Assembly (NCBI GenBank): GCA_043823085.1 | Contig: JBDRBE010000004.1 | Coordinates: 342,780 to 406,779, forward strand | Direction: 5' to 3' | DNA length: 64,000 bases | Source of the DNA: Candidatus Levyibacteriota bacterium | Lineage (GTDB): Bacteria > Patescibacteriota > Microgenomatia > Levybacterales > UBA12049 | Shown here: in pieces, positions 4,111 to 63,229 of the stretch | Layout: every line of letters starts with the position of its first letter | How positions within the stretch are numbered: the first letter of the stretch is position 1 | Notes under the pieces: model-generated | Databases searched by the model: none | The model's input: the letters and a program-made list of their open reading frames with translations, nothing else | What the model was told of the DNA's origin: nothing | Position numbers and translations under genes: made by a program

Positions 4111-4179
4111 AAAATTTGAATAGTGCCATCGAAGCCAATTAAAGTTAAAGCTTGTTATGTTATAATTATTCCAGTCTTA

Positions 4180-5289: not shown

Positions 5290-5649
5290 TTAAATAATCT
5301 TTTTTCCTGTTTCCAAATCGACAACTTCACTAATTCCAACCAGTATTGCGGATTTTGGGAGAGGCGGGTTGCTTTTGGAAATCGCAAGATTTAAATATTT
5401 CCCCGATGAATAAACTGATGCTGTACCATCAATTCTGAAATAATGCTTGTCCTCATTTGCTACTATTGAAACTTTGTTGTTCTCTTTAATATTTTCCAGG
5501 GTTTTCTTCATCAAACACGCCCCAATTAATATTTTATTATCAATAATGCCAAGGGAAAGTACAGCGATAGCTCGTGACCTTCCGTCTTTTGAACTGGTTG
5601 CCAGAACAATCGCCTGTCTTTCTTTTAGCGCCTTTTTCCAAAAATCCAT
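5290..5649 (-). CDS. pyridoxamine 5'-phosphate oxidase-like (FMN-binding split barrel) protein, putative
   Basis: 119-aa protein with a PNPOx-like N-terminal pattern (LATSSKDGRSRAIAV). Weak assignment. Confidence 0.35.
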   Translation of the reverse strand: MDFWKKALKERQAIVLATSSKDGRSRAIAVLSLGIIDNKILIGACLMKKTLENIKENNKVSIVANEDKHYFRIDGTASVYSSGKYLNLAISKSNPPLPKSAILVGISEVVDLETGKKII

Positions 5650-7324: not shown

Positions 7325-7400
7325 ATACTAGTTTATTAGCGTCTAGCGGCTAGCGTTTAGTTTAACTATACGCTATACACTATTAACTAGACGCTAGTAA
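7325..7400. repeat. ACGCTA/TAGACGCTAG word-repeat block
   Basis: Sequence ttagcgtctagcggctagcgtttag..aactatacgctatacactattaactagacgctag. Same word family as 31980-32010, 32302-32360 and inside dnaX at 45001-45070. Confidence 0.5.
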
Positions 7401-41521: not shown

Positions 41522-42150
41522 TACTCACTCCTTCCTTCCATGGCGCGTTGGAGAGTTAATTCGTCGGCGTATTCAATATCTGAACCGGTGGGCAGTCCCC
41601 TGCCAATTCGTGTTATTGTTAATTGTTGATTGTTGATTGTTGATTGTTGGCGAAGTTGCTTCGCCAAGTACATCGCCGTCGCCTCCCCTTCCATGGTCGG
41701 ATTCGTCGCCAGTATTATCTCGCGGACTAATGCTGAACTCGAACGCGGAACCGCGCCGACTCGCTCTAGCAGTTGGTGAATATAAATTTCATCCGGGCCG
41801 ATATTGTTGAGCGGATCAATCCTCCCATGGAGGACATGATAAACGCCGTTATACCTGCCGTTTTTTTCCAGCGCCAAAACATCCAAGGGCTCTTCAACCA
41901 CACAAATAGTTGAATCATCTCTTTTCTCATCAGAACAAATATTACAGGGGTCTTGCTCCCCTATCATAAAACATTTCGAACATAAGACCGTATCTTTTTT
42001 CAAATTGATAATAGATGAAGAAAATCTATCCAGTTCACCTTGAGGAACATGCAGTAAATAAAATGTTAGCCTCTGCGCTGTTTTTGGCCCAATTCCCGGC
42101 AGTCTTTCAAAGGACTCAATCAAATTCGCAATTGCTTTTGGGACTCTCAT
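41518..42150 (-). CDS. recR: recombination protein RecR, carrying an in-frame heptamer-repeat insertion
   Basis: HhH segment GIGPKTAQRL. C4 zinc finger CSKCFMIGEQDPCNIC. Toprim domain. (ATTGTTG)x5 at 41615-41649 encodes QQSTINNQQLT. Confidence 0.85.
   Translation of the reverse strand: MRVPKAIANLIESFERLPGIGPKTAQRLTFYLLHVPQGELDRFSSSIINLKKDTVLCSKCFMIGEQDPCNICSDEKRDDSTICVVEEPLDVLALEKNGRYNGVYHVLHGRIDPLNNIGPDEIYIHQLLERVGAVPRSSSALVREIILATNPTMEGEATAMYLAKQLRQQSTINNQQLTITRIGRGLPTGSDIEYADELTLQRAMEGRSEY
41615..41649. repeat. ATTGTTG heptamer tandem repeat (x5) inside the recR coding sequence
   Basis: Seen directly in the sequence. The same repeat is inside proS at 49581-49615. Confidence 0.7.
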
Positions 42151-43704: not shown

Positions 43705-45249
43705 CTATTTCTGTTTTAGTGAAATTGAAACGTCGATTGGGCTTCCTATAATTTGTTTACAAACCTTTTCTATAATATCACGAGTTTTTCTTTCTTCCAA
43801 GCGCTCTTTATGAAACTTATATCCGGCTTCTATGGCAAGATTTTTCCCGTCAAAACTTTTTAAAGTACATCCTCTTAGAACTCCTGCCACCGAATGATTG
43901 TAGGGCTTGACCAAATCAATAAGCTGTTTTAGGACATTTTTTTCGTCAAATATTCCGGGTTGATTAATCGCAGGATTCGATAACACTTCTTCTTTCTCCA
44001 CCTTTTTGTCGCGGAAAGACGCAGAACCGGACGCCAAACTACGCTGACTTTGAACATCTTGGTTTTGATTATTAGTTTCGCGTTTTTCTGCATTTTGTTC
44101 CGCATTCTTCTGCGCCTGTATTCCCCACTCCACAATTGCAATTTCAAGCGGCAATTGCGGCAGGACCGCATATTTTATTTCTCCATACGCCTTTGCCAAA
44201 ATTTCAATCAAAGACTTAATTTCATTAAGTTCTAAATTATAAGTTACAAGTCCTAAGTTATTTTCTACACCGACTTTTGATAATAAATTTAAATGCAGTT
44301 GGGAAATCATTTCTGATATAAAATATTTAACATCTATCCCCTCTTTTGTAATTCTTGATACCAATTCTAAGCTTTTTTTAGTGTCTTTTTTAGAAAGATA
44401 GTCCAACATCTTTGATACTTGATACTTGATACTTGATACTTGATATTTCTCCTCCACCAATTCTTTGGTAATCTTTTTTTTATTGGACATTAAAACAAGT
44501 TCTTCTAAGATTTTTACACCGTCGCGAAAACTGCCGTCGGACAATGAGGCAATATATTTTAGTTCTTCTTTTTCTATTGGAATATTTTCCTCTTTGGCAA
44601 TCCGCGAGAATGAACGCAGAAGTTCTTCTTGGGTCGCTCTCTTAAAAGAAATATGAAAACAACGCGAAAGGATAGTCGCCGGAACTTTTTGCGGTTCCGT
44701 GGTACAAAGAATAAAAACAGCATGACTCGGCGGCTCTTCTAAAGTTTTTAAAAGCGCATTAAAAGCTTCTGTGGTCAACATGTGAACTTCATCAATAATG
44801 TAAACTTTTTTAGAAGCCAGAGCAGGCGAAAGCCGTATTTTCTCACGCAAATCTCTTATCTCATCAATCCCTCTATTTGATGCTCCGTCTATTTCCAAAA
44901 CATCTAAATTTGTGCCATTAGTAATAGATTTACATTGCAAGCATTTATTACAAGGCTCAATACTAGCATCTAGCGTATACCTGCCTGCCGGCAAGGCAGG
45001 GCGTTTAGCGTTTAGTTTTTTTTCTTTTGAACTAGACACTAATTTATTAGACGCTAGACGCTCGCAATTGAGGATTTTTGCGACAATTCTGGCGGTTGAA
45101 GTTTTTCCAAGTCCTTTAGGTCCGGTAAAAAGAAAAGCGTGTTGTTCTGATTTTTGATCGCCGGAAAAAACAGCGGTTAATTTTTCTCTAATTTCTTGAC
45201 TATCAAGATCTTTAATTTTTTGCGGCCGATATTTTCGATAATAAACCAT
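43705..45249 (-). CDS. dnaX: DNA polymerase III subunit gamma/tau, carrying two in-frame repeat insertions
   Basis: AAA+ Walker A GPKGLGKTS and sensor motifs. (CTTGATA)x5 at 44410-44447 encodes SIKYQVSSIKYQVS. An ACGCTA-word block at 45001-45070 lies inside the Zn module, between NCE and EPCNKCLQC. Confidence 0.85.
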   Translation of the reverse strand: MVYYRKYRPQKIKDLDSQEIREKLTAVFSGDQKSEQHAFLFTGPKGLGKTSTARIVAKILNCERLASNKLVSSSKEKKLNAKRPALPAGRYTLDASIEPCNKCLQCKSITNGTNLDVLEIDGASNRGIDEIRDLREKIRLSPALASKKVYIIDEVHMLTTEAFNALLKTLEEPPSHAVFILCTTEPQKVPATILSRCFHISFKRATQEELLRSFSRIAKEENIPIEKEELKYIASLSDGSFRDGVKILEELVLMSNKKKITKELVEEKYQVSSIKYQVSKMLDYLSKKDTKKSLELVSRITKEGIDVKYFISEMISQLHLNLLSKVGVENNLGLVTYNLELNEIKSLIEILAKAYGEIKYAVLPQLPLEIAIVEWGIQAQKNAEQNAEKRETNNQNQDVQSQRSLASGSASFRDKKVEKEEVLSNPAINQPGIFDEKNVLKQLIDLVKPYNHSVAGVLRGCTLKSFDGKNLAIEAGYKFHKERLEERKTRDIIEKVCKQIIGSPIDVSISLKQK

Positions 45250-45325
45250 AAACTAAAAATTTCTAAGTTCTAATTTCTAATTGACCTAAATAATTTAGAA
45301 ATTAGGTTAATTAGGTTAATTTTTA

Positions 45326-49371: not shown

Positions 49372-51079
49372 TTACTTCGTCTATTGTTAACATTTCTGTT
49401 TCGCTTTTAGCTCTTTCTTTGCATTCAATTTTATCACCGGTTTTGCCTGAAATTACTAAACGTATTGGACAACCGATTAAATCGCAGTCGGCGAATTTTT
49501 CCCCTGCCGAAATATCTCTATCGTCATAAAAAACCTCAATCCCCGCATCTTGCAATTTTTCATAAATTTCATCCGCCATTTTGTTGATTGTTGATTGTTG
49601 ATTGTTGATTGTTACGAGGTGTACCAAGTATGGTGCAACCGCTTCCGGCCACTTAATCCCTTTATCATCAGAGTGAACTTCAACAACCGCCGCCATTGTC
49701 CTTGCAATTCCAATTCCATAACAACCCATGTAATATGGTTTTTCTTTTCCGTTTTCGTCTGTAAAAGTGGCGCCTTTCATTTTTGAAGAATAGTGAAATC
49801 CAAGCTGAAAAATATTTCCAACCTCAATCCCCCGTTTTTCTATCAGTTTTTGACCGTTTGGCGCGGCGTATCCTGCTTTTGCAAGCTTGAACTCATAAAA
49901 CTTTTCAGGCTTGGGCAAGTCCCTGCCAAAATTTACATTAATATTGTGAATATTGGTTTTATTCGAACCCATTTCAAAATTCTTTCTTCCTCTCATTGAC
50001 TCATCCATAAAAATTCTGACATCTTTTGGTAAATTCAAAAGCCCGGCATATCCCACTTCTGCTCCTGTTATTTTTCTGACAGTCTCGGCCGACGCAAGCT
50101 TTAAAGAATAAACTTTGGCAACATGCGAGAGCTTAGTTTCATTTATCTCAAAATCTCCTCTGACTGCCGCGGCAATAACTTTTCCATTCTCGTCTTCAAA
50201 GAGAAGTGTTTTTGTGGTTTGTTCAACCGGAATATCAAGAAACTTCGCCAGCTCAAAAACTCCAATAATCCCTTTGCCCTCAACTTCTTCCATCGGCCTC
50301 TCTTCTTCACCGCTTTCTATTTGGTTTAATGAAAGTTTTGCAACGTCTTCATGGACACAATAACTTCCATCCTCTGTTGTCAAATACCTGCTTTCTCCGC
50401 TTTCATGTTCCACCACAAATTCATGACAATATTCCCCCCCGATATAACCGTTATCCGATTCAACAATAATAGTTTTCAACCCCAAACGCTCAAAAATTTT
50501 AGTGTAAGTTTTTTTCATTTTTTCATACTCTTTTTTGAAATCTTCCTCTGTTGTATGAAAAGAATATCCGTCTTTCATCACAAATTCTTTAACTCGCAAA
50601 AGCCCCCCCCGCGGCCGCAGTTCATCCCGAAACTTGGTAGAAAATTGGTAGAGATTAAAAGGCAAATCTTTGTAGCTTATCTGAAATTTACGAACTAAAT
50701 CAACCAGCATTTCCTCTGCTGTCCCACCCAAAACAAATTCCATTTCGTTTCTGTCTTTAACTTTTACAAGTTCAAAACCAACCGAATTTGTGCGGTTTGT
50801 TTCTTTCCATAAAGCAACCGGATGAAGAATTGGTGCTGTGATTTCCTGCGCACCTGCTTTATCCATTTCAACTTTTATAATATCTTGAATTTTCTGGTGG
50901 ACTTTTTGGCCAAGCGGTAAAAAATAATAACGCCCTGCTGTACTTTCGCGGATAAATCCTGCCTTATAAAGAAGTTTATGGGAAGTAATAACCGCATCCT
51001 TTGGCGCTTCCCGAATTGTTCTTCCAAACAGTTTTGAATATCTCATAACAAAAGTATAGCACAAATCCGCGATTGTCAT
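49343..51079 (-). CDS. proS: prolyl-tRNA synthetase (bacterial type), carrying an in-frame heptamer-repeat insertion
   Basis: Class II motifs and an anticodon-binding C-terminus. (TTGTTGA)x4 at 49581-49615 encodes TINNQQSTIN in the linker. Confidence 0.9.
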   Translation of the reverse strand: MTIADLCYTFVMRYSKLFGRTIREAPKDAVITSHKLLYKAGFIRESTAGRYYFLPLGQKVHQKIQDIIKVEMDKAGAQEITAPILHPVALWKETNRTNSVGFELVKVKDRNEMEFVLGGTAEEMLVDLVRKFQISYKDLPFNLYQFSTKFRDELRPRGGLLRVKEFVMKDGYSFHTTEEDFKKEYEKMKKTYTKIFERLGLKTIIVESDNGYIGGEYCHEFVVEHESGESRYLTTEDGSYCVHEDVAKLSLNQIESGEEERPMEEVEGKGIIGVFELAKFLDIPVEQTTKTLLFEDENGKVIAAAVRGDFEINETKLSHVAKVYSLKLASAETVRKITGAEVGYAGLLNLPKDVRIFMDESMRGRKNFEMGSNKTNIHNINVNFGRDLPKPEKFYEFKLAKAGYAAPNGQKLIEKRGIEVGNIFQLGFHYSSKMKGATFTDENGKEKPYYMGCYGIGIARTMAAVVEVHSDDKGIKWPEAVAPYLVHLVTINNQQSTINKMADEIYEKLQDAGIEVFYDDRDISAGEKFADCDLIGCPIRLVISGKTGDKIECKERAKSETEMLTIDEVIKRLCQGRG

Positions 51080-52604: not shown

Positions 52605-53606
52605 TTACTTCTTCTTCACCGGATGTCTTCCAAATTGCCAGCGCATGGCGGCAACCACTTTGTTACGAAATCCGTTTGGTGATATTTCTTTATCTTTATC
52701 TGAATTATCGCGAACGCAAACTGATGCGTTAAGGACTGGCGTCTCAACACCCATTTTCTTTGCCATTTCAACAGTCCAGTGCCCCTCCCCTTTTGTTTTT
52801 CCAGAACCTCCGCCTGAACCAATGACCGATGAAATATCCGAAAGGTTTTGGTCTTTTTTTAATTCATTTAAAGTCCAGCCAACTAAACGCGATTCTATTA
52901 TTGAACCGTTATTGTAAATTCGAAAGACTTCGCTAAGGTCATATTTAAACGGAGCATATTTTAAAATCGCCGCGCCTTCGCCAATTGCCTCCATCATGCC
53001 ATATTCAATTCCGTTGTGAATTGTCTTGGCAAAATGTCCAGCTCCAATTGGCCCCAAATGCGCGTAGCCGTCTTTTCTGGCAGCAGATTTTAGAATCGGC
53101 TCAATTCTTTTGAAGTCTTCTTTTTGCCCTCCGACCATAATACATGCGCCATTTCTTGCTCCTTCTATTCCTCCGCTTATTCCGCAGTCCATATAATGAA
53201 TTTGTTTTTTTGCTAAAGTTTTTGCACGCCGCAAAGTATGTGTGTAAAGCGAATTTCCTCCGTCAATTATCAAATCGCCAGAGGATAATTTATCCATCAA
53301 CTCGTTTAAAACCGCATCAACGGCCTCTCCAGCGCTAACCATCAGCCAGATTATTCGTGGGGTCTTTAAAGTTTTAACTAATTCTTCTAAGGTTTTTGTT
53401 GTTGTTAAATTCCCACCATTTGAATTATGAATTATGAATTTTGAATTATGAATTTTTTTATTTTTCCATAATTCCTGATTCCTAATTCTTAATTCTTCTA
53501 TCGATTCTTTTGATCGATTCCACGCCACAATTTCCATCCCCTCTTCCAAAAGATGCAAAACCATTGCCTTTCCCATTTTGCCCAAACCAATAAATCCAAT
53601 CTTCAT
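52605..53606 (-). CDS. gnd: 6-phosphogluconate dehydrogenase-like NAD(P)-binding protein (short form), carrying an in-frame repeat insertion
   Basis: N-terminus MKIGFIGLGKMGKAM is a Rossmann fold. C-terminal 6PGDH domain. AATTCATAATTCA-type repeats at 53421-53500 encode RIRNQELWKNKKIHNSKFIIHNSNGG. Confidence 0.65.
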   Translation of the reverse strand: MKIGFIGLGKMGKAMVLHLLEEGMEIVAWNRSKESIEELRIRNQELWKNKKIHNSKFIIHNSNGGNLTTTKTLEELVKTLKTPRIIWLMVSAGEAVDAVLNELMDKLSSGDLIIDGGNSLYTHTLRRAKTLAKKQIHYMDCGISGGIEGARNGACIMVGGQKEDFKRIEPILKSAARKDGYAHLGPIGAGHFAKTIHNGIEYGMMEAIGEGAAILKYAPFKYDLSEVFRIYNNGSIIESRLVGWTLNELKKDQNLSDISSVIGSGGGSGKTKGEGHWTVEMAKKMGVETPVLNASVCVRDNSDKDKEISPNGFRNKVVAAMRWQFGRHPVKKK

Positions 53607-53666
53607 AATAGAAATTCTTACATTTATAAATAAGAGAGTCAAGTCCTAAATTATTTAAACAAATAA

Positions 53667-53703
53667 ACAAAATACTACAGTGCTATGTAGTGCTAAAGTT
53701 TAG
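53667..53703. promoter_or_regulatory. 37-bp repeat ACAAAATACTACAGTGCTATGTAGTGCTAAAGTTTAG, 3' copy, overlapping the stop of the TrpR-like gene
   Basis: 34 of 37 identical to the copy at 54250-54286. Contains CTACA..TGTAG and TAGCGCTA-like dyads. Confidence 0.5.
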
Positions 53704-54238
53704 AACGCAAAAGTTTTTCAATACGCCTATGGAGCTCGTTTTTTTCGTCCAGCTTCTTTAACACATTGCTTATTTTGTCTTTCTGTTTTTGACTCGCACT
53801 TTCTATTACTTTTTCCAAAAGAAGCTCCGGCCAAAAATACAAAGCATGTCTTCTTTTAAATTTATCCCAATCTGAAATATCTGCCCAACTTTTTCCCTTC
53901 TCTATTTCTTGTTTAGGAAGTTTTTTTATTATATTCCTAAAACCATCTCCTCTTTCTGAAAGCCAAACAGCTATCTTCGCAATAGTGGCATAACTTACAT
54001 GCAATTGCCGATTCACTTTTTGATAAGTCAATCCTTTTATCAAAAGTTTTGCTATTCTTAATCTTTTAGATAAAATTTGAACTTCTTTCTTTGTCAATAA
54101 ATCTTGAAGAAATAAAGCAGCCTCGCCGATATTTCCTGTATAAACTAATGCATTAAGTAAATCAAAAAATAAGTCTCTCTGTTCATTTTTTGAAAGCTTT
54201 TCAATTCTTCTTGGTTTTTCAAAAAATGTTTTATTCAT
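53693..54238 (-). CDS. TrpR-like (YerC/YecD family) DNA-binding protein, second paralog
   Basis: HTH region TYQKVNRQLHVSYATIAKIAVWL. Family similarity to the 36560 protein. Confidence 0.6.
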   Translation of the reverse strand: MNKTFFEKPRRIEKLSKNEQRDLFFDLLNALVYTGNIGEAALFLQDLLTKKEVQILSKRLRIAKLLIKGLTYQKVNRQLHVSYATIAKIAVWLSERGDGFRNIIKKLPKQEIEKGKSWADISDWDKFKRRHALYFWPELLLEKVIESASQKQKDKISNVLKKLDEKNELHRRIEKLLRSKL

Positions 54239-54249
54239 AAAATGAACTA

Positions 54250-54286
54250 ACAAAATACTACAGTGCTATGTAGCGCTAAAGTATAG
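54250..54286. promoter_or_regulatory. 37-bp repeat, 5' copy, just upstream of the TrpR-like start (putative operator with a TATACT -10)
   Basis: In gene orientation, TATACT is followed directly by the TAGCGCTA palindrome and the CTACA-N6-TGTAG dyad. Confidence 0.5.
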
Positions 54287-54352
54287 ACGTAATTAGCCTA
54301 ACATATTAATTATGGAAGAATCAATAAGAAGAATTCGCAAGATAATTGGAGA

Positions 54353-54679
54353 TTATTTGATTACGCTTCCCTCCGGAACTTCTTTGTCGGGAGATAAAAG
54401 AACGCATTTACCATCAACATCAACTGCCATAAGCATCCCCTGACTTTCCAATCCTTTTATAACTTTTTGTTCCATATTCATAATAAAAGTAGATTCTTTT
54501 CCAATTAAAGTTTCAGGCTTATAAAACTCCGCAATGCCAGAAATTACTTGTCTTTTTTCAGCACCGAAGTCAACTTCAAGTTTTAATAATTTATCAGCAC
54601 CTGCTACCTTTTCCGCCGCCAAAACTTTCCCAATTCTTATTTCTAATTTCTCAAAATCTTTAAAACCTACTGTATCCAT
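54353..54679 (-). CDS. tRNA-binding domain protein (CsaA/Trbp111/EMAPII-like)
   Basis: MDTVGFKDFEKLEIRIGKV..KLEVDFG matches the tRNA-binding OB fold. Confidence 0.65.
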   Translation of the reverse strand: MDTVGFKDFEKLEIRIGKVLAAEKVAGADKLLKLEVDFGAEKRQVISGIAEFYKPETLIGKESTFIMNMEQKVIKGLESQGMLMAVDVDGKCVLLSPDKEVPEGSVIK

Positions 54680-56115
54680 TTTCTCCCATCCTTCTGGATT
54701 AATTCATTTGCCTCTTTTGGTCCCCACGTCCCTGATTCATAATTCATAATTCCTGATTCCCGTCTCTTCCATCCTTCCAGAATTTTAGTGATAAACTCCC
54801 ACGAACTGTCAAGCTCGTCAGAGCGGTTAAAAAGCATCTGGTCACCAACAAAAATGTCCAAAAGAACTTTTTCGTATGCATTTGTACCTTTTGTATGAAA
54901 TTCGTCTTCGTAATTAAAATTCATATTTACTGTTCCCAACGACACTTTTGAACCCGGCTTTTTTGCGATAACGCGAAGACTAATTCCTTCATTCGGTTGA
55001 ATTCTGATAGTCAAAACATTTCCGGTCTCTGGACAACCATATTCTTTAAATAAAACATGGCAAGTTTGAATAAAAACTATAGAAATTTCCACAGTGCTTT
55101 TTGGCATTTTCTTCCCTACTCTTGCATAAAACGGCACATTTTTAAATCTTTCCGAGTCAACATATAATTTCATTGCAACAAAGGTTTCGGTATTTGATTT
55201 CGGATCAACATCCTTTTCTTTTAGATAGCCTTCATATTGTCCTCTTGCCACAAACTTATCAACCTCATTAGATTCTATGGAGCGGATTGCTTTAATTGCA
55301 TTTGCCCTAACATCACGCATATCGTCTCTTGTAAAGCTTCTTGGCTGTTCCATGGCAACTGCCGCTACCATTTGCATAATGTGATTTTGACCCATGTCCC
55401 TTAACGTCCCAACTCCGTCAAAAAACTTTCCTCTTCTTTCTATTCCCTTTTCTTCTGCAAGTGTGATTTGCACATGATCAATAAAATTTTTGTTCCAGAC
55501 CGGTTCAAAAATTCCGTTGGCAAATCTAAAAGCAATCATGTTCTGCACCGTCTCTTTTCCTAAATAATGATCAACCCTAAAAATCTGTCTTTCTTCAAAG
55601 ATCTCCGAAAGCCTTTTATCAAGCGCTCTCGCAGTCTCTAGGTCTTTACCAAAGGGTTTTTCAATAATAATTTTTGTCCACTTATTGCTTCCCTGTCCGC
55701 ACCCTTCGGAAAGTTTTGAATGATTAAGATGCTCTAAAATTTCCGGATAATTGGCTGGCGGCGTTGCCAAATAAAAAAGGCGCGTAACACAAGCGCCAAT
55801 TTCTTTATCAAATCCTTCCAGTTTTTTAATTAATTCTTCGTAATCTTCCTTTTCCTCAAATTTTCCTTGTTGGTAAAAAATATTTTTTGAAAACGCGTCC
55901 CAATCACTCTGACGATATGTATTATTAGAGTGTAAAAATTCTTTTAGAAGACTATGAAACTCGCTGTTTGTGAACTCTCTTCTTGCAAAACCAATGAGAT
56001 AAAATTTTTCCGGTAATTTTTTTTCTTGAAAGAGTTTAAAAAGAGAAGGAAGAAGTTTAGTCCGCATCAAATCCCCTGTTGCCCCAAAAATAATCATTGC
56101 AAATGGAGAATTCAT
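54667..56115 (-). CDS. zwf: glucose-6-phosphate 1-dehydrogenase
   Basis: NADP-binding GATGDL. Active-site segment DHYLGKE. Motif EKPFG. Small in-frame insert IMNYES from AATTATGAATTATGAAT near the C-terminus. Confidence 0.85.
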   Translation of the reverse strand: MNSPFAMIIFGATGDLMRTKLLPSLFKLFQEKKLPEKFYLIGFARREFTNSEFHSLLKEFLHSNNTYRQSDWDAFSKNIFYQQGKFEEKEDYEELIKKLEGFDKEIGACVTRLFYLATPPANYPEILEHLNHSKLSEGCGQGSNKWTKIIIEKPFGKDLETARALDKRLSEIFEERQIFRVDHYLGKETVQNMIAFRFANGIFEPVWNKNFIDHVQITLAEEKGIERRGKFFDGVGTLRDMGQNHIMQMVAAVAMEQPRSFTRDDMRDVRANAIKAIRSIESNEVDKFVARGQYEGYLKEKDVDPKSNTETFVAMKLYVDSERFKNVPFYARVGKKMPKSTVEISIVFIQTCHVLFKEYGCPETGNVLTIRIQPNEGISLRVIAKKPGSKVSLGTVNMNFNYEDEFHTKGTNAYEKVLLDIFVGDQMLFNRSDELDSSWEFITKILEGWKRRESGIMNYESGTWGPKEANELIQKDGRKWIQ

Positions 56116-56125
56116 TAAAATTATT

Positions 56126-56860
56126 CTACACCTTTTGGTCGGTTATTAAAAGCGTTTTTTTGGAGATTTCGGGCTTCAAATAAAAACGGGATGGAATTTC
56201 TTCAAGAGAACCTTGTTTGAACATCAAGCTCAACGCATTTTTCTTTGAAGAACCAAATACAAAAATAATCAAAAAATCAAACATTTCCATTGCTTTAAAA
56301 GTTAAAGTAATCCTTTTTCCAAACCCGGTTTGGAAAGTATTTCCGTCATCAAAACATGAAACAAATAAATTTTCCTGATCTTTTCCAAAAAGAGGATTTA
56401 CGAAATTATCTTTGTTTGGCGCAATCCCCGCAGTGTGACCATCATTCCCCATTCCAAAAATCCCTACACTCTTTGGAAATTTGGAAAGCAGTAAGCGGAC
56501 AGTTTCGTCATAATCTTTGACAGTTTTTTCAAAATCTTTATTCTCTAAAATTGGATAAAACCTAACGTTTGAACTTTGGAGATAAGAAACAAAACCTGTT
56601 TCTCTAATCATTTTTTCATTGCTGTCGGGATGATTTATTTCTCCATAACGTTCATCAACCAAAGCAACTGCGCCTGGTTTTAAAATTTTTTCTCTTGCAA
56701 TTTCTTCGTATAAAGCTTTTGGGGTTGAACCGCCGGACAGAAAAAGAACAGTTTTTTTATCAATAACTCCATAAAGAATTTCTTTGGCAGATTGCAGTTC
56801 TTGTTGGATATTATCTGCGGTTAAAATAGAAACGCCTTCTTTTTTCGCAAATTCATCCAT
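56126..56860 (-). CDS. pgl: 6-phosphogluconolactonase
   Basis: GlcN6P deaminase/6PGL fold (LSGGSTP motif). Confidence 0.7.
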   Translation of the reverse strand: MDEFAKKEGVSILTADNIQQELQSAKEILYGVIDKKTVLFLSGGSTPKALYEEIAREKILKPGAVALVDERYGEINHPDSNEKMIRETGFVSYLQSSNVRFYPILENKDFEKTVKDYDETVRLLLSKFPKSVGIFGMGNDGHTAGIAPNKDNFVNPLFGKDQENLFVSCFDDGNTFQTGFGKRITLTFKAMEMFDFLIIFVFGSSKKNALSLMFKQGSLEEIPSRFYLKPEISKKTLLITDQKV

Positions 56861-56960
56861 ATTCTCTCCATGTCATGCTGAACTTGTTTCAGCATCTCGA
56901 TTTATTCACTGTGCAATGAGATTCCGAAATAAATTCGGAATGACACTACATGATTTTTTT
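56861..56960. repeat. hairpin-rich intergenic block (GCTGAA-CTTG-TTTCAGC; ATTCCGAA-ATAA-ATTCGGAAT) flanked by GTCATGCTGAA..GAATGACAC
   Basis: Two perfect hairpins between pgl and rseP. The flanking motif is related to the 9625 element. Confidence 0.45.
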
Positions 56961-56962
56961 AA

Positions 56963-58192
56963 TTATGGACCAAAAATATTTTTGCCGGAAATTAATCTGG
57001 TTAAATCATGAAAAGTTATTAAGGCAATTAAAGTCAAAAGTAATGCCATACCAATCGCGTGAGAGTAGCTTTCGAATTTGGCCGGAACTCTTCGCCGAGT
57101 TGCTACTTCTATCAGAATAAAAAACAATCTTCCACCGTCCAAAGCCGGAATTGGCAAGATATTAAAAAAAGCAAGCGAAATCGACAATATTCCGGCGAGA
57201 TTTAGAACCTGTAAAATTTTTTCTTTAAGATCGGGTATTTTAACAATATTTCCAACCAAAGAGTATATTCCTACCGGACCGGCAACGCTTTGGGAAATAG
57301 GCTCGGCGGTTTTTTCTTTTATCGAAATACCAATTAGCTGTCCCATGATGTTGAAATTGTAAGCCAGAAGATTTAATGGATGAGTAAATCCGGAAAATAT
57401 TTTTTGAGGAACAGTTTTATAATCTAAAACTACCATTGAAACCGGAAAAAAACTAATTCCGATTGCTCCCTCGTTTTTGGGAGGATTTATTCTTGGTGTA
57501 ATTTTTGCAAAATAATTTTTATTATTTTTTGCATCCTGCCATGCAACTGTAATTTCTTTTCCTTTATTTTTACTAATAATTTCGGCAAAATAATTCACAT
57601 CATTAACTTTTTGTCCATTTATAGAAAGAATCTTTGAAAAAGATTTAATTCCCGCAATTTCTGCCGGCGAGTTTTTGGCAACATCGGCAATAATTATATC
57701 CGAAGAGTTAGTTTGAGAAACGGCAAAAAATTTATGATCGCCCAAAAGCGGGAGCTGGGTTTTAAAATCGGAAATAAATAAAAATGCGTAGAAAATAACT
57801 GCGGCAAGAACTGTATTCATAAAAACGCCGGCCACTACAATCACCGCTCTTTGTCCGACCGGTCTTGCAAAAAACGCACGGTCTTTATTCTTAATTCTTA
57901 ATTCCTGATTTTTAATTCCCGGCCTGCCGCTACCGGCCTCATCCTCGCCATAAAGTTTTACAAATCCGCCAATCGGCAGCCAATTAATTGAATAAATAGT
58001 CTCGCCCTTTTTTATGCCAAACGCTCTTGGAGGAAGTCCAAACCCAAATTCTTCAACTTTTATCCCTAATTTTTTTGCTACAAAAAAATGCCCAAACTCG
58101 TGAATCAACACTAAAATCGAGAGAATAACCAAAAAAACAACGGCCGTAATTATCATAAATTTTGACTTATATATCGCGGGGAGCCTTTTCAT
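56963..58192 (-). CDS. rseP: RseP-type site-2 protease (M50) with a PDZ domain
   Basis: HEFGH zinc motif in TM1. PDZ domain. LDGG motif. In-frame insert IKNQELRIKNKD from the TAATTCTTAATTCCTGATT repeat at 57886-57921. Confidence 0.8.
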   Translation of the reverse strand: MKRLPAIYKSKFMIITAVVFLVILSILVLIHEFGHFFVAKKLGIKVEEFGFGLPPRAFGIKKGETIYSINWLPIGGFVKLYGEDEAGSGRPGIKNQELRIKNKDRAFFARPVGQRAVIVVAGVFMNTVLAAVIFYAFLFISDFKTQLPLLGDHKFFAVSQTNSSDIIIADVAKNSPAEIAGIKSFSKILSINGQKVNDVNYFAEIISKNKGKEITVAWQDAKNNKNYFAKITPRINPPKNEGAIGISFFPVSMVVLDYKTVPQKIFSGFTHPLNLLAYNFNIMGQLIGISIKEKTAEPISQSVAGPVGIYSLVGNIVKIPDLKEKILQVLNLAGILSISLAFFNILPIPALDGGRLFFILIEVATRRRVPAKFESYSHAIGMALLLTLIALITFHDLTRLISGKNIFGP

Positions 58193-58340
58193 GAGGTGAC
58201 GTCTTCACTAGAGTCGCCGAAGGCGACCGTATCCCGAGTCCCGCCGATGAGGCGGGACGGAGGGACGCTTGCGTTTGAAGACTCGCCGAACTGGAAAGGC
58301 GACCTAAGCGATATTCCCTGAACAAGAAAACTTTTATACC
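58193..58340 (-). promoter_or_regulatory. GC-rich structured 5' leader upstream of rseP, with promoter TGGTATAAAAG
   Basis: In gene orientation: GTCCCGCC-TCATC-GGCGGGAC (8-bp stem) and GTCGCC-TTCG-GCGAC (UUCG tetraloop). Preceded by a solo MITE arm and a TATAAA -10. Confidence 0.3.
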
Positions 58341-58350
58341 AAAGTAAAAA

Positions 58351-58914
58351 TTATATCTGCATTAACTCTTCTTCTTTTTTCTTTCCCAAATTTTCAATTT
58401 CTAAAATTACCGAATCGATTTCTCTTTGAACTTCTTTTTCCAAACGAAGCTGTTCGTCTTCGGAAATTGTTTTATCGTTATAATGTTTTTTTATTTCATT
58501 CATTGCTTCATGCCGCACTTGACGCGCCTGAATTTTTCCGCCTTCCAATTTTTGTTTCATCAAATGAATCAGCTGTTGACGCCTTTCCTCTGATAATGCC
58601 GGTATGGAAATTCTAATCACTACTCCATCAATCACAGGAGTCAGTCCGACATTTGCTTCCTGAATTCCTTTTTGGATTTCACCAATTATTGAATTGTCAA
58701 AAGGGGTAATAACTAGAGTTTGATTATCCGAAGCAGCAATTGTGGCAAGTTCTAAAACTTTTAATTTTTGCGCTCCTCCGTAAGCGTTAATAGAAATATG
58801 TTCAACCAACGATGGCGCGGCGCGGCCGGTTCTAACCGTCGCCAAATCATTTTTCAAAATCTCCAAAACTTTCTGAATTCTCTGTTTCGTTTCTGCTGTA
58901 AAATCCGGATTCAT
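58351..58914 (-). CDS. frr: ribosome recycling factor
   Basis: 187 aa. Canonical RRF sequence. Confidence 0.9.
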   Translation of the reverse strand: MNPDFTAETKQRIQKVLEILKNDLATVRTGRAAPSLVEHISINAYGGAQKLKVLELATIAASDNQTLVITPFDNSIIGEIQKGIQEANVGLTPVIDGVVIRISIPALSEERRQQLIHLMKQKLEGGKIQARQVRHEAMNEIKKHYNDKTISEDEQLRLEKEVQREIDSVILEIENLGKKKEEELMQI

Positions 58915-58920
58915 AAACTA

Positions 58921-59379
58921 TTACCCTATTTCAAATCTCTGGAATTTCTTAACGACGATATTTTCGCCAAGTTTTCCGATAACGCTTTTTATTAAATCAT
59001 TAATTGTCATTGAACTATCGCGAATATACTCTTGTTTTAATAAGCTTGCAACGTCTTTTGGATTCATGGCGCAAATTTGCATGGCAATTTCGTGAGCTAA
59101 ATTTTTAAATTCTTGTGTTCTTGCAACAAAATCCGTTTCACAAAGTATTGAAATTAAAGCGCCGACTCGGCCATTTTGGTGAATGTAGGCTTCAACAAGT
59201 CCTTGTGAAGTCTCACGCTCTGCTTTTTTCTCGGCTTTTTCTATTCCTCTTTTTTTAAGCCAGGCAAGCGCTTTTTTATAATCGCCCGCTGATTCTTCCA
59301 ATGCAATTCTGCAATCGGAAACTGAAGCTTGTGTTTCATTTCGCAGTTTTTTTAAGTCTTGAAGATTTATGCTTACCAT
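58921..59379 (-). CDS. tsf: elongation factor Ts (short form)
   Basis: UBA-like N-terminus LKKLRNETQASVSDCRIALEESAGDYKKALAWLKKRG plus the dimerisation domain. The upstream extension in the ORF track is spurious. Confidence 0.8.
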   Translation of the reverse strand: MVSINLQDLKKLRNETQASVSDCRIALEESAGDYKKALAWLKKRGIEKAEKKAERETSQGLVEAYIHQNGRVGALISILCETDFVARTQEFKNLAHEIAMQICAMNPKDVASLLKQEYIRDSSMTINDLIKSVIGKLGENIVVKKFQRFEIG

Positions 59380-59380
59380 T

Positions 59381-60187
59381 TTACTTCTCCTTACTGGGTT
59401 TTGTTTTTGGTTTTGTTGTCGCCGCCCGTTTAGTTTTAGTTTCCTTTGACGATACGGGTTTGGAAACCTCAACCTTTGCCGATTTTCTTCCCTCAACCCA
59501 CGCTTCTATTATATATGAAATTATTAATTTCAAACTGCCGACCGCATCATCGTTTGCCGGAACAGCATAATCAATTAAGTATGGATCTGCATTGGTATCG
59601 GTTATGCCAACTGTTGGAATACTCATTCTTTTTGCTTCGCGAACTGCTAAATCTTCAAGATGCGAATCAATGATAAACAAGGCGTCGGGAAGTTTTTTCA
59701 TTTCCAAAACTCCGCCGTAAAAACCTTCAAGTTGTAGTTTTTCTTTTTCCCATAGTCCAACTTCCCTTTTGGTATATTTTGCTCTTTCTTCTTCATTTTT
59801 TAACCGTTCTCCTAAATCTTTTAATTTCCTATAATTTTTGGCCATTTCCGAATAATTGGTTAAAGTTCCGCCCATCCAGCGATTGGCAACCCAAAATAAT
59901 CCATCGGCAAAACCTTCTATTTTTGCTTTTTCAATTGCTTCTTTTAGAATCCCTTGCGCTTGCCTTTTTGTTCCAACCACCAAAAAACTTGATCCTTCTT
60001 TTTTGGCAACTGATTTTACAAATGCGGCGGCATTGTCTAAACCCTCCTTGGTTTTTGCTAAATCTATAATGTGGATATTATCGCGAGCTTCAAAAATATA
60101 ATCGCGGGCCTTTGGGTTTGAACGAGTTACCTGATGCCCGAAATGGCATCCTGCTTCCAATAATTCTTCAAGTGTAATTTCTCTCAT
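59381..60187 (-). CDS. rpsB: ribosomal protein S2 with a Lys-rich C-terminal extension
   Basis: MREITLEELLEAGCHFGHQVTRSNP. GGAGG RBS. Confidence 0.9.
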   Translation of the reverse strand: MREITLEELLEAGCHFGHQVTRSNPKARDYIFEARDNIHIIDLAKTKEGLDNAAAFVKSVAKKEGSSFLVVGTKRQAQGILKEAIEKAKIEGFADGLFWVANRWMGGTLTNYSEMAKNYRKLKDLGERLKNEEERAKYTKREVGLWEKEKLQLEGFYGGVLEMKKLPDALFIIDSHLEDLAVREAKRMSIPTVGITDTNADPYLIDYAVPANDDAVGSLKLIISYIIEAWVEGRKSAKVEVSKPVSSKETKTKRAATTKPKTKPSKEK

Positions 60188-60208
60188 ACCGTTTCCTTTT
60201 ACCTCCAC

Positions 60209-60714
60209 TTACAATTAATCTTATTCAGGAAACATAAAGTAAGTGTGTGAATTAAATTCATGATAGCAGAAAAAGAAAAAAAATACAATCCCAAACTTAT
60301 CTTACGCCGCCTTGCGGCCATTCCCTGTCCGGCAAATATTGGCGCGGAAAAGAAGAGGATAAAAGAAATGCAAGTCTCTTTTATACTGCTCACTATATCT
60401 TTTTAATTCTTCTGGTAATGCATCCACGCCACAATGCCAGATAAATCTCGCACACATTTGAAGATCTGTCGGTAGCTTTACCAACGTTCCTTGTCGATCA
60501 ACCCCAGCTCTTCTTGTTCGCTCAAAAACAACATTACTATCTGTCTCTAGTTGACGGTGTACTCTTGGACCACCTAAATCATGCTCTGATAATGCTTAAA
60601 ACCGCTTTCCTTGTCTGTTTCTTAAAAATCTTCTAAGGGCCTCTGGTCGACGACATACTTCTATCATATAATTTATAATTGAATAATATCACTAAATCCC
60701 ATTTTTGCAAGAGG
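60209..60714. pseudogene. about 500-bp non-coding stretch with broken reading frames, a possible decayed gene
   Basis: Minus-strand frames read MIEVCRRPEALRRFLRNRQGKRF, then a stop, then ALSEHDLGGPRVHRQLETDSNVVFERTRRAGVDRQG.. No intact ORF longer than 64 aa. Composition differs from the neighbouring intergenic DNA. Confidence 0.2.
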
Positions 60715-62073
60715 TTATGCTACGGGGAATTTGGAGCAAAGGCTTTTGACTTCTTTATTGATTAAAATTAATTTTTTATTTTTAATAACATTTGTTCTAA
60801 ATTCTTTCCAAAACTGTCCTCTTTCTTCTTTGTTTTGCGGAATCTGCGAGTTTCCTACCTCTTGACAAATTTCATTTATCCATTTGGCGATTTTTACCAT
60901 TTCTCTCTCCTTCATCCCCCGCGTAGTTATGGCAGGTGTTCCCAAACGAATTCCCGAAGGGTAAAACGGAGGCATCGGGTCATTTGGAACAGCGTTTTTA
61001 TTAACAACTATTCCCGCAATTTCTAAAGCCAAAGCCGCAGCCGCACCATTAACATTTTTATTTTTTAAATCTATTAAAAGCAAATGATTTTCTGTTGTAC
61101 CGCTTATTAAATTAAATCCATATCTTGTAAGTTCATCTGCCAGCGTTTTTGCATTTTTAACAATCTGCGCGCCGTATCTTTTGAAAGATGTTAAACTTGC
61201 TTCATAAAGAGCAACGGCAATTGCGGCAGTTTGATTGTCATGCGGGCCTCCCTGCAATCCTGGAAAAACCGCTTTATTAATTTTTTCTCCAAGCTCGGGA
61301 TCTTTTTTTAGTCCTTTATCTGTAACCATTATCATCGCTCCTCTTGGACCTCTCAAAGTTTTATGTGTTGTCGTCATAACTATATGGGCATATGGGATAG
61401 GACTTGGATGAACGCCGGCAACAATAAGACCGGTAATATGGGAAATATCGGCAAGCAAATATGCTCCGACTTTATCGGCAATTTGTCCGAATCTTTTAAA
61501 ATTGATGATTCTAGGATAAGCTGTATAACCGCAGACAATAATTTTTGGCTTTTCTTTAACTGCCAATTTTTCAAGTTCATCATAATCCAACAAACCATCT
61601 TTACCAAGCTGATACTGAACTGTCTTAAAATATTTTCCCGAAAAAGAGACCGGCGCACCGTGAGTTAAATGCCCACCGAATGCCAGAGAAAGCCCCATAA
61701 TTTTATCCTTTAAAGGCTCTAAAAGCGCAAAGTAAATCGCTGTGTTGGCCGGAGAACCGGAATATGGCTGAACGTTTACATATGGAACGCCGAAAAGTTT
61801 TTTAGCCCTTTCTTGAGCCAAAATTTCTACTTCGTCGGCAAACTTTTGTCCTTGATAATAACGTTTTTTTGGATACCCTTCGGAATATTTATAGTTTAAA
61901 ACGCTACCCAATGCCTGAAGCATTGCTTTGCTTAAATGATTGTTCGATGGAATCATTTCTAATGTATTTTGAACTCGTTTTTCCTCGTCTTTGATAAGCT
62001 TGTAAATTTTGGGGTCGGTTTTTTGCAATGCTTTCACAAAATAGATAATACTAATAATTTTAAAAATAATCAA
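60715..62073 (-). CDS. glyA: serine hydroxymethyltransferase
   Basis: PLP motif VMTTTHKTLRGPRG and the overall SHMT sequence. Confidence 0.9.
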   Translation of the reverse strand: MIIFKIISIIYFVKALQKTDPKIYKLIKDEEKRVQNTLEMIPSNNHLSKAMLQALGSVLNYKYSEGYPKKRYYQGQKFADEVEILAQERAKKLFGVPYVNVQPYSGSPANTAIYFALLEPLKDKIMGLSLAFGGHLTHGAPVSFSGKYFKTVQYQLGKDGLLDYDELEKLAVKEKPKIIVCGYTAYPRIINFKRFGQIADKVGAYLLADISHITGLIVAGVHPSPIPYAHIVMTTTHKTLRGPRGAMIMVTDKGLKKDPELGEKINKAVFPGLQGGPHDNQTAAIAVALYEASLTSFKRYGAQIVKNAKTLADELTRYGFNLISGTTENHLLLIDLKNKNVNGAAAALALEIAGIVVNKNAVPNDPMPPFYPSGIRLGTPAITTRGMKEREMVKIAKWINEICQEVGNSQIPQNKEERGQFWKEFRTNVIKNKKLILINKEVKSLCSKFPVA

Positions 62074-62213
62074 GGGCTAGTTTTTAGAATCTTTGATGTG
62101 AGAAGTGGGATTTTCTTGAACTTGACCGTTTTGATATCTAGATATCTAGAATTCAAGAAATCGAAGATTCAAGATCAAAAATGTCAAAAATATCTCACGT
62201 CAAAAATTCTAGT
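62074..62213. repeat. palindromic intergenic element, a copy lacking the CAGCTG core
   Basis: Termini TAGAATCTTTGATGTGAGAAGTGGGATTTTCTTGAACTTGA and ATATCTCACGTCAAAAATTCTAG. Aligns with the reverse complement of the 43544 copy. Confidence 0.55.
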
Positions 62214-62744
62214 TCATCTCTCCAATTCCAAAAACTTATATTTATGTCCTTCCCACTTTCCTTCTTTTTCAAAAACTATTTTTTTGAATATTGATTCGTA
62301 TTCCGGGAAAAAAGTGTCGGCGTCTTTAACAGCATCTACAATTGTTAAATATAATTTATCCGTTAAACCAATCGCCTGCTGATAAATCTGTCCCCCCCCG
62401 ATAATAAATATTTCTTTTTTATTGTCATGCCAAACTTGTTTCGGCATCTCACGAGATTCTGAAGCCATTTTCAACGCTTCATCCAAAGAACTCGTAATTT
62501 TTAGCTTCGCAAGGCGTCGCCTTGCGAAGCTAGAATCTCGCGAAATAACTATGTTCGTCCTATTGGGAAGAGGATGGCCAATCGACTCGAAGGTTTTTCG
62601 CCCCATTATAATAGTATGGCCACATGTTTTTTCGCGAAACCGCTTCATATCTTCGGGGATTTGCCACAACAATTTATTATCGTTCCCAATTCCTCTGTCT
62701 TTTGAAATCGCTACGATGATGCTGATTTTTGAATTATGAATCAT
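62214..62744 (-). CDS. folA: dihydrofolate reductase, carrying an in-frame palindrome insertion
   Basis: DHFR motifs (IVAISKDRGIG, LLW, MGRKTFESIG). The 29-bp palindrome at 62503-62531 encodes SSFARRRLAKLKI. Confidence 0.8.
   Translation of the reverse strand: MIHNSKISIIVAISKDRGIGNDNKLLWQIPEDMKRFREKTCGHTIIMGRKTFESIGHPLPNRTNIVISRDSSFARRRLAKLKITSSLDEALKMASESREMPKQVWHDNKKEIFIIGGGQIYQQAIGLTDKLYLTIVDAVKDADTFFPEYESIFKKIVFEKEGKWEGHKYKFLELER
62503..62531. repeat. 29-bp palindrome AGCTTCGCAAGGCGTCGCCTTGCGAAGCT inside folA. Sister copy at 4082-4110.
   Basis: Seen directly in the sequence. GC-rich in an AT-rich gene. Confidence 0.6.
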
Positions 62745-63229
62745 AAATTATGAATTTTTGAACTTTTAATCAAACCGTTTGAATCGCTAAAAAACTTAAT
62801 TGCATCCTCCACCGTTTGTTTAACATTTGCCAATAATTGATATTTATCTAAATCTGACGTTTTTACCCATTCCGGAATTGTTTCTTCCGATTCTTTTATT
62901 TCCCCTGAAAATTTTAAACAAAGAAAAACATGCCAGGAAAAATTTACAACTCCCTGTTTTCTTTTAATTGCCGCATAATAAATATTATTAGGATAATCAA
63001 CAAATGAAATTCCTGTTAACCCCGTTTCTTCTTTTAATTCTCTAATTGCCGTATCTTTTTCTGTTTCACTCTCATCAACTTTTCCGCCGGGCAAACCATA
63101 AATTCCTGTCAAATGTCCTGCTTTTTGGGTATGTCTTACAAGCAAAACTTTATCATCTTTGATAAGTAATGCCGCCGCTGATAAAACAATATTTTTAAGT
63201 TTTTGATTTTTCGTAGAAGCCTCCTGCAA
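62741..63229 (-). CDS. NUDIX hydrolase
   Basis: Nudix box GGKVDESETEKDTAIRELKEETGL. Confidence 0.7.
   Translation of the reverse strand: MQEASTKNQKLKNIVLSAAALLIKDDKVLLVRHTQKAGHLTGIYGLPGGKVDESETEKDTAIRELKEETGLTGISFVDYPNNIYYAAIKRKQGVVNFSWHVFLCLKFSGEIKESEETIPEWVKTSDLDKYQLLANVKQTVEDAIKFFSDSNGLIKSSKIHNL

Follow-up and report, generated by a model that had tools for sequence, protein, structure and literature searches.

Tandem heptamers in Levybacteriota housekeeping genes as probable arms of a palindromic cassette family with a four-helix-bundle protein gene

Introduction

Why do the same short AT-rich words recur inside several housekeeping genes of a single bacterium? We address this question in a 64,000-nt stretch of Candidatus Levybacteriota DNA (“the window”, by which we mean the whole stretch), where such words are found in a 6-phosphogluconate dehydrogenase-like gene (6PGDH-like, here “gnd-like”), in zwf, in rseP, in cysS and at the junction of a nudix gene with folA. 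They consist of heptamers repeated in tandem (GAATYAN, or NTRATTC when read from the opposite strand) and occupy six places in the window. We consider it probable that they are the arms of a palindromic cassette family that carries a PF05635 four-helix-bundle gene, and that gene-less or one-armed copies of this cassette reside in housekeeping genes. The encoded protein, the four-helix-bundle or “23S rRNA intervening-sequence protein” (PF05635/TIGR02436), is abbreviated IVP throughout.

Arrays are called left-arm type (GAATYAN) or right-arm type (NTRATTC) as read on the sense strand of their host genes, all of which lie on the minus strand; comparison loci carry L-numbers and comparison proteins P-numbers. 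The closest relatives of the zwf gene are from Candidatus Levybacteria (Microgenomates, Patescibacteria/candidate phyla radiation (CPR)) with protein identities of at most 69%, and the gene order rseP-pgl-zwf-(tRNA_bind)-gnd-like is conserved among relatives. Pfam matches confirmed the gene names given in a preliminary description of this DNA.

Results

Heptamer arrays form a repeat family within coding sequence

Tandem Repeats Finder (TRF) located period-7 arrays at 53421–53454 (TGAATTA ×4.9), 53464–53495, 54731–54760, 57882–57918 and 62730–62756. The recurrence of the words at these places, already noticed in the preliminary description, is thus borne out by sequence and by TRF, with the amendments that five arrays had been entered there as four sites and that an array in cysS (34289–34309) had been overlooked. 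As chance baseline we used 100 dinucleotide-preserving shuffles of the window sequence, against which AATTCATAATTCA with up to one mismatch had 9 matches (0.40 expected), TAATTCTTAATTCCTGATT with up to three mismatches 5 (0.20 expected) and AATTCNTRATTCNT without mismatch 7 (0.11 expected). The words therefore exceed shuffled sequence about 20- to 60-fold, and the observed counts were reached in none of the 100 shuffles. The reservation that the motif might be nothing other than codon-usage-driven AT-rich sequence is contradicted by these counts, and the words represent a real repeat family embedded in genes.

A complete hairpin in the gnd-like gene

The gnd-like gene (52605–53642, minus strand) contains a complete hairpin without a four-helix-bundle open reading frame (ORF) at 53421–53497 of the same strand, as established by inverted-repeat search, folding and ortholog alignment. 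In gene sense, a left arm GAATTAA GAATTAG GAATCAG GAATTAT (53467–53497) is followed by a loop (53451–53466) and a right arm of four to five NTAATTC units (53421–53450). No inverted repeat in the window is longer than that of the two arrays, which lie in opposite orientation (arms of 29 nt with 83% complementarity, separated by 16 nt), and the RNA hairpin has a minimum free energy of −21 kcal/mol (z = −6.2 against shuffles). This site accordingly has the long stem of terminal inverted repeats that is also a feature of intervening-sequence (IVS) cassettes.

The hairpin is read in frame as RIRNQELWKNKKIHNSKFIIHNSNGG, and its peptide, ELRIRNQELWK...KIHNSKFIIHNS, corresponds to an IVP N-terminus joined to an IVP C-terminus; the predicted translation through the insert includes the peptide ELWKNKKIHNSK. 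Aligned to about 240 homologs, the gnd-like protein has an insertion of 14–26 amino acids after strand 2 and before strand 3 of its Rossmann fold, 14 of which go beyond the loop found family-wide. In an AlphaFold (AF2) model of the protein (predicted local distance difference test (pLDDT) 91.9) the fold is kept, with pLDDT above 90 outside the insert. Helix 33–51 is lengthened by the left-arm part in this model, and confidence is low only for residues 53–64, the right-arm part. The model thus indicates that the insert is tolerated at the protein surface, in the manner of in-frame insertions of the Rickettsia palindromic element (RPE) type.

The same hairpin is found at the same codon in L008 and L081–L086, whose gnd-like proteins are about 42% identical to that of the window. 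Across these 42%-identical genes the 80-nt hairpin element retains approximately 85% DNA identity, and nearly all differences are non-synonymous: the hairpin is conserved as nucleic acid. Its presence is patchy, as it is absent from P0122 (78% identical to L008), from most relatives at 60–69% identity and from the nearest relative of the window's gene (73% identical). Across eight sequences 97.7% of the cells in the outer helices are paired. Covariation was considered as proof of a selected RNA structure and rejected, given that eight sequences with 26 pairs yielded one compensatory pair and shuffle controls were not exceeded. A single compensatory pair in spite of the kept pairing points to a sequence that is itself conserved or was recently shared, not to covariation that maintains an RNA structure.

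The gnd-like loop, ATGGAAAAATAAAAAAAT, resembles the 5′ codons of an L224-type IVP gene (ATGGAAAATAATAAAATT) over about six codon-equivalents, and on the basis of this likeness at the sequence level the insert can be recognised as a cassette that has lost its ORF.

Unit number does not vary in the two hairpin-carrying clusters with more than 90% identity (7 and 5 members). Shortened cluster members had to be dismissed as examples of strain variation, as L087 ends with its contig and L088 has a 10-N scaffold gap (1844–1853), both at the gnd-like hairpin. Public assemblies thus break, or carry an N-gap, exactly at this hairpin, and gene callers then report N-terminally shortened proteins starting from MHNSKF or MIHDS. 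In the P0158 cluster (Curtissbacteria; members P0262 and P0260; more than 90% identical), the gnd-like loop has a 10-amino acid deletion between the direct repeats ISNFQ...QISNFK, and the 25 residues after this deletion are replaced in mosaic fashion, implying that the loop turns over quickly. The gene as a whole may also have a history of its own: the gnd-like protein of the window shares 68–73% identity with Daviesbacteria-type proteins and only about 42% with the syntenic gene of most other Levybacteria, which suggests a xenolog replacement at a conserved position.

The gene-bearing form of the cassette

In L099, L106/L121 and L138 an IVP gene of about 120–125 amino acids lies between an upstream GAATTAN and a downstream NTAATTC array, and ORF-less hairpins occur alongside. 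The gene scores 1.7e-36 against TIGR02436 and 1.2e-37 against PF05635, with a weaker match to Avd of diversity-generating retroelements (DGRs). Its ATG lies within the left array (GAATT-ATG-AAT-CAG-GAA-TCA-GG, read as MNQESG at the start of MNQESGK...), and its stop within the right array (ATA-ATT-CAT-AAT-TCT-TAA, read as IIHNS and stop at the end of ...SSKAIIHNS). Two Patescibacteria cassettes that were fetched independently, L223 and L224, have the same arrangement of arms and gene at the DNA level. Heptamers abutting the ATG of the ORF, another feature of IVS cassettes, are therefore present as well, the same units containing the IVP ATG in L099, L106, L223 and L224.

A hidden Markov model (HMM) search of the comparison loci retrieved 24 IVP genes, most of them with flanking inverted heptamer-like arms whose unit differs by cassette (CTAATTN, ATAGCTT, AAAATCA, GAATTAN). 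Their flank inverted-repeat score had a median of 30, whereas 362 random ORFs of comparable length had a median of 17 (Mann–Whitney p = 6e-11).

The L106 protein, from a Candidatus Falkowbacteria contig, has 6598 homologs at E <= 1e-10, and the named ones among the best 120 are from Patescibacteria. Among these best 120 of 6598, 92 start with MNxE[SL] and 70 end with IHNS or IHDS. Some IVP homologs have extra N-terminal units, namely ELGIMNQESGK, ELRIMNQESRK, NDELGIMNQESGK, NNELRIMNQESRK, MNESGIMNQESGK and MNYELGIMENNK. As judged by these comparisons, the peptides encoded by the words of the window are the termini of the IVP protein.

A decayed cassette end at the nudix–folA junction

The nudix gene (NUDIX; 62741–63229) and folA (DHFR; 62214–62744), both on the minus strand, meet within a right-arm array (62724–62766). 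The nudix TGA (62743–62741) and the folA ATG (62744–62742) overlap inside its heptamers, so that stop and start are indeed both provided by the array, as had been proposed. The nudix product ends with SSKIHNL before the stop, and the folA product starts with MIHNSK.

The last 12 nudix codons, NGLIKSSKIHNL and stop, match the IVP C-terminal helix, ...INGLIKSSKAIIHNS and stop. In L067, the 3′ end of the IVP gene together with the right arm can be aligned to DNA 62780–62741, and so can the same region of L106; the L067 IVP gene lies directly upstream of folA, which starts with MIHNTKIS within the right arm. This alignment of the nudix tail with an IVP 3′ end identifies the junction (62724–62780, minus strand), by DNA alignment with L067 and L106 and by IVP C-termini, as the putative right end of a cassette whose gene is almost wholly deleted, the NGLIKSSKIHNL tail being a relic of the IVP gene. 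The cassette remnant would now provide the C-terminus and stop of the nudix protein and the start of folA. That the nudix gene is itself a cassette cargo was considered and dropped, there being no left arm upstream of it.

Single left arms in zwf, rseP and cysS

Three further genes carry a left arm only. Near the C-terminus of zwf (54667–56115, minus strand) the array GAATCAG GAATTAT GAATTAT GAATCAG (54731–54762, minus strand) is read as ESGIMNYESG, a peptide that matches extended IVP N-termini such as MNESGIMNQESGK. In L001 and L002 this array is kept even at synonymous sites, with diverged third positions in its flanks, and its last units overlap the native conserved Y-E-x-G-T-W-G-P motif. 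The array in a variable loop of the RseP/M50 protease (gene 56963–58192, array 57882–57921, both minus strand) is read as GIKNQELRIKNKD / GIKNQELRIKNK and matches the IVP N-terminal extensions ELRIMNQESRK and MNNESRIKNHES. In cysS, AGAATTA GGAATTA TGAATTC (34289–34309, minus strand) is read as KELGIMNS, matching the IVP extension NDELGIMNQESGK. None of the four single-arm sites of the window, the nudix–folA junction included, folds into a stem.

Ortholog alignments, proposed earlier as the means to delimit lineage-specific inserts, confirmed such an insert in the gnd-like gene and not in zwf or rseP, where only a variable loop was rewritten and its length is the same as in the orthologs. The cysS site is presumably not an insertion either, from a comparison by eye only with the E. 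coli protein.

The cysS array sits in the loop of a G+C-rich inverted repeat (34270–34290 / 34332–34352, 21-nt arms, fold −30.4 kcal/mol), and two kinds of repeat are thus nested in one loop of the CysS protein.

Other roles for the words were tried and rejected. A Shine–Dalgarno or internal-start role for AGGAAUUAUG in zwf does not fit a downstream gene that starts 50–80 nt further on, a CsrA-type GGA sponge does not fit a seventh base that is often not G, and a DNA-uptake sequence was considered and dropped.

The hairpin in metagenomes and viral contigs

To cover public metagenomes, the pattern (GAATYAN)2GAAT – 15–45 nt – ATTC(NTRATTC)2 was used. It matched at least 120 hairpin stretches on contigs of 32–68% G+C, most of them outside long ORFs among the matches listed. 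Viral contigs contained 13 stretches, whereas two control patterns in which the units were permuted gave 0 and 1.

Twelve of the 136 GAATYAN hairpins among the matches listed are in frame within ORFs of at least 150 amino acids. Their hosts comprise a class-I aminoacyl-tRNA synthetase, an IorA-like thiamine pyrophosphate enzyme, a class-V aminotransferase, a 5′–3′ exonuclease, ribonucleotide reductase (RNR), TsaD, a REC domain and two pilin-like leaders, and in several of them the insert splits the Pfam domain match in two. The reading is always ...E[SL][GR]I[MK]N[QH]E[SL]... followed by ...HNSKFIIHNS.... In GAA-TTA-NGA-ATT-ANG-AAT-TAN the seventh base has to avoid TGA, TAA and TAG, which GAATCA at every third unit does, as in the gnd-like copy. 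The only recurrent neighbour family of 80 hairpins among the matches listed is PF05635 (5 loci).

Some viral contigs from IMG/VR (L213, L214, L220) have two GAATYAN hairpins 0.4–1.5 kb apart, and an ORF reads through the hairpin in frame in L209 and L213 (LRILNYELRIKRR..NSSFVIRNS). Right arms can extend to 9–10 perfect units next to a left arm of 3 (GTAATTC ×9 and ATAATTC ×10; L099 at 5415–5477, L168 from 3684), from which it follows that arrays change unit number in some genomes.

Related arrays and the period-7 background

Related hairpins with other units are found elsewhere in the window. An intergenic ORF-less hairpin with CTAATTN units (45254–45325), detected by inverted repeats, has arms near-identical to those flanking the IVP gene in L022 and L014. 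Its flanks are not homologous to theirs, so that it marks a different genomic site and speaks for dispersal, not for an empty site. A hairpin of TAGCGTT / CTAGACG units (44996–45065, minus strand; fold −27.9 kcal/mol) is in frame in dnaX (43705–45249; Pfam DNA_pol3_delta2/AAA, the gamma/tau gene), where it is an insertion relative to the shortest orthologs in a region of highly variable ortholog length; L022 has a peptide similar to that of this hairpin (SSKKEKLNAKS). Inverted-repeat search and folding (−28.6 kcal/mol) also revealed an intergenic hairpin of CTAGCGN-type heptamers at 7330–7400. In proS a CAATCAA ×4.7 array (49581–49613, minus strand), the unit being a one-base variant of GAATCAA, encodes TINNQQSTINK where L040 has GIMNQESRIKE, and a sister array lies in recR (41611–41649).

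The arrays had been described as a third repeat family that recurs in the pentose-phosphate cluster. The family itself is real and embedded in genes; it is probably not independent, as the TTGTTGA/TGTTGAT arrays are the reverse complement of CAATCAA and thereby one base from GAATCAA. Nor is the pentose-phosphate cluster special, given the copy in cysS, the sister arrays in recR, proS and dnaX and the same hairpin in unrelated bacteria.

Period-7 arrays are abundant in general: the window has 18 compared with 2.35 in shuffles, and 80 Levybacteria loci (1.25 Mb) have 14 per 64 kb compared with 1.9 for period 6. These loci contain 127 distinct period-7 units, among which those with AATTC are commonest. 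In the gnd-like loop of other species ATTTCAA, NTCAAAA or AAATACW arrays are found, and recR, proS and dnaX likewise have other units. Period-8 arrays are enriched in the window like those of period 7 (18 compared with 2.85 in shuffles; e.g. TTGAAATC at 43614, TCATTGCT at 47508 and GATTTCAA at 48800), with only 4.4 per 64 kb in the 80 related loci.

Other repeats in the window

A Trp-repressor-like helix-turn-helix (HTH) gene of 186 amino acids (53693–54253, minus strand) lies between two 55-nt direct repeats (53650–53704 / 54233–54287) that are 84% identical and have the exact 18-mer TACTACAGTGCTATGTAG in common (2 matches, 0 expected). A similar HTH gene is found between zwf and tRNA_bind in L082. 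The gene with its direct repeats could represent a small module that was inserted, or else a promoter/operator duplication.

The window contains no rRNA genes, and an Rfam 15 search of it gave one match at the gathering score, a tRNA at 4181–4265. A G+C-rich near-perfect palindrome, TTAGCTTCGCAAGGCG / CGCCTTGCGAAGCTAA, occurs at 4080–4112, upstream of this tRNA, and at 62499–62535, within folA (4 arm matches, 0.03 expected). It is a separate repeat family that is likewise found in coding sequence.

Discussion

The loci compared here show a cassette architecture in gene-bearing and gene-less forms, relics of its decay, its tolerance in frame within genes and its spread across phyla. In the explanation that we favour, the full form would consist of (GAATYAN)3–5, a loop holding the IVP gene of about 125 amino acids (an Avd relative) and (NTRATTC)3–5. 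The left array would double as ribosome-binding stretch and ATG and the right array as last codons and stop, while the paired arms would form a long A/U-rich stem with a mismatch at every seventh base. Internal deletion of the gene would give rise to short hairpins, much as miniature transposable elements with inverted repeats (MITEs) arise from transposons, and solo arms would follow when more is deleted or when microhomology seeds a conversion. Three heptamers make 21 nt and would be read in all three phases, and copies with a stop-avoiding seventh base would be harmless in tolerant surface loops and persist there in frame. The elements would disperse within and between genomes as selfish DNA. 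Our best guess is that they move when recombination occurs or a template is switched, be it between arrays or at the hairpin, and by analogy with rRNA intervening sequences RNase III would be expected to cleave the stem.

Several observations weigh against this explanation. The HMM search found no PF05635 ORF between arms in the 64-kb window and hence no intact cassette, and the 1.25 Mb of Levybacteria loci contain no GAATYAN-armed cassette, theirs using other heptamer units. Among the matches listed, an IVP gene with matching arms lies nearby in only 4 of about 130 loci with ORF-less hairpins. The loops of these hairpins are unrelated to one another, and neither a target-site duplication nor a flank motif was seen by eye in 80 hairpins among the matches listed, all of which is unlike ordinary transposable elements. 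The pairing of the gnd-like hairpin is kept mainly through conservation of its sequence, with a single compensatory pair. The general period-7 excess, with its 127 units and with differing units in the same loop, also fits repeat generation in situ. Least secure is the cassette status of the three solo arms, none of which is an insertion; as the zwf array overlaps the native N-Y-E-x-G motif, local slippage or conversion seeded by native codons may be its source.

The last two points lead to the strongest rival, according to which the arrays are heptanucleotide simple sequence repeats (SSRs) that arose by slippage in place, in unconstrained loops of an AT-rich genome, with common codons (GAA-TTA, AAT-TCA, ATT-CAT) seeding the same units. 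It can draw on the 7- to 8-fold genome-wide over-representation of period-7 arrays, on the species-specific arrays in the gnd-like loop, on the zwf, rseP and cysS sites and on the alignment of the gnd-like left arm with an ancestral EELKKEAKEL helix, and it perhaps accounts for the solo arms. Slippage leaves unexplained, however, the inverted right arm with its 85% DNA identity across 42%-identical proteins, the remnant of an IVP gene with which nudix ends, the fact that the peptides are the same as the termini of about 100 IVP proteins, and the occurrence of the same hairpin at up to 68% GC with an excess of 13 over 0–1 for permuted units; moreover, strains more than 90% identical show no copy-number variation. 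As a general account we regard it as unlikely. Chance likeness of AT-rich, codon-biased sequence, which a window G+C content of 37.7% might favour, is practically negligible with observed counts that no shuffle reached.

Selection could alternatively act on the words themselves. A structure selected by the host in RNA or DNA, such as a site for RNase III processing or for stability, or an array bound by a protein, through which pentose-phosphate and folate genes are co-regulated, would agree with folds that beat shuffles (z = −6.2 and −4.5), with the 97.7% outer-helix pairing across eight sequences, with nucleotide conservation above protein conservation and with the RNase III cleavage of related stems in rRNA IVSs (PMC4990558). 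We nevertheless think it improbable, and more so than slippage, because of the one compensatory pair and the unexceeded shuffle controls, the patchiness among close orthologs, the copies in unrelated genes and between genes in many phyla, the absence of an Rfam match at gathering thresholds and the inability of single arms to form a structure. Even further down we place selection for a short peptide motif (e.g. IKNQEL or IHNSKF) that is useful to proteins: the inserts are always open in frame and in the model the left-arm part lengthens a helix, but hairpin copies differ from each other almost exclusively by non-synonymous changes, disorder is predicted for the right-arm part and the same DNA lies mostly outside genes, which makes this account very hard to credit.

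The cassette explanation has its closest precedent in the intervening sequences of 23S rRNA known from Coxiella burnetii and Leptospira. The Coxiella element has an S23p ORF with three to four tandem heptamers ahead of it, within an inverted-repeat stem of 28 bp; RNase III cleaves this stem at the first heptamer, and strains differ in how many heptamers they have (PMC4990558). The cassettes share with these elements the cargo family (PF05635/S23p), a long stem formed from terminal inverted repeats, heptamers right before the ATG of the ORF, ORF-less and ORF-decaying forms and a status regarded as selfish. They differ in that the copies of the window lie in or between protein genes and not in helix 25 or 45 of 23S rRNA (nor in 16S), in that their unit is GAATYAN and not GACAGAT, and in that copies within genes must be translated and are not excised. 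Insertions in CPR 16S and 23S rRNA that encode 23S_rRNA_IVP are known (PMC11270868).

Like RPEs, the hairpins are short palindromic repeats without their own transposase that lie in frame in housekeeping genes and add a translated peptide to the protein surface. RPEs were reportedly interpreted by Ogata et al in 2000 as selfish DNA in protein-coding genes. They are about 100–150 bp long, without heptamers or known cargo gene and confined to Rickettsia, whereas the hairpins described here measure about 55–100 nt, occur in many phyla, have Patescibacteria as host and a gene-bearing parent form, a distinction drawn from architecture. Passages citing RPEs are found in PMC1779305 and PMC10969869. 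With MITEs the hairpins have in common that they are short, dispersed, non-autonomous derivatives of a gene-bearing element by internal deletion, with inverted ends; unlike in MITEs, no duplication of the target site was seen, the cargo cannot be recognised as a transposase and the loops are not conserved.

Tandem heptamers are also characteristic of the short tandemly repeated repetitive (STRR) sequences of cyanobacteria. The TAACTGA repeats of Beggiatoaceae, Cyanobacteria and Bacteroidetes are intergenic heptamer direct repeats (PMC4679880). Both resemble the arms in having tandem 7-nt units, often right before start codons, and a cross-phylum distribution that suggests horizontal spread; they differ as intergenic direct repeats of other units. 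For the TAACTGA repeats, neither a link to PF05635 nor in-frame copies are mentioned (PMC4679880). Phase-variable SSRs of contingency loci, which switch the reading frame through unit number, in turn differ from the gnd-like hairpin, whose two clusters, with members more than 90% identical, show no differences in unit number. In the literature searched we found no description of heptamer-armed PF05635 cassettes outside rRNA, of ORF-less hairpins or of in-frame copies, the nearest being the Coxiella IVS paper.

A much bolder extension, which we put forward tentatively and hold to be rather doubtful, is that heptamer-stemmed cassettes with Avd-like genes constitute one pan-bacterial mobile class, of which rRNA IVSs were the first-noticed members and of which STRR, TAACTGA repeats and the period-7 excess of Patescibacteria would be arms or footprints. 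The pentameric protein would recognise the units and promote their spread, including the in-frame colonisation of essential genes.

For the genomes studied here, repeats in essential genes that resemble low-complexity noise gain a concrete identity. The cassettes join three topics hitherto kept apart, the IVP family (with thousands of copies in Patescibacteria and a relative in DGRs), hairpin intervening sequences and the excess of heptanucleotide repeats long known from certain bacteria. IVS-like hairpins would not be limited to rRNA and would persist, translated, in a 6PGDH-like dehydrogenase, aminoacyl-tRNA synthetases, DnaX and RNR. This is relevant to gene calling and protein-family alignments of candidate-phyla genomes and, as contigs break at the hairpins, to metagenome assembly. 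It also makes a question directly testable, namely whether the four-helix-bundle protein binds to (GAATTAN)n.

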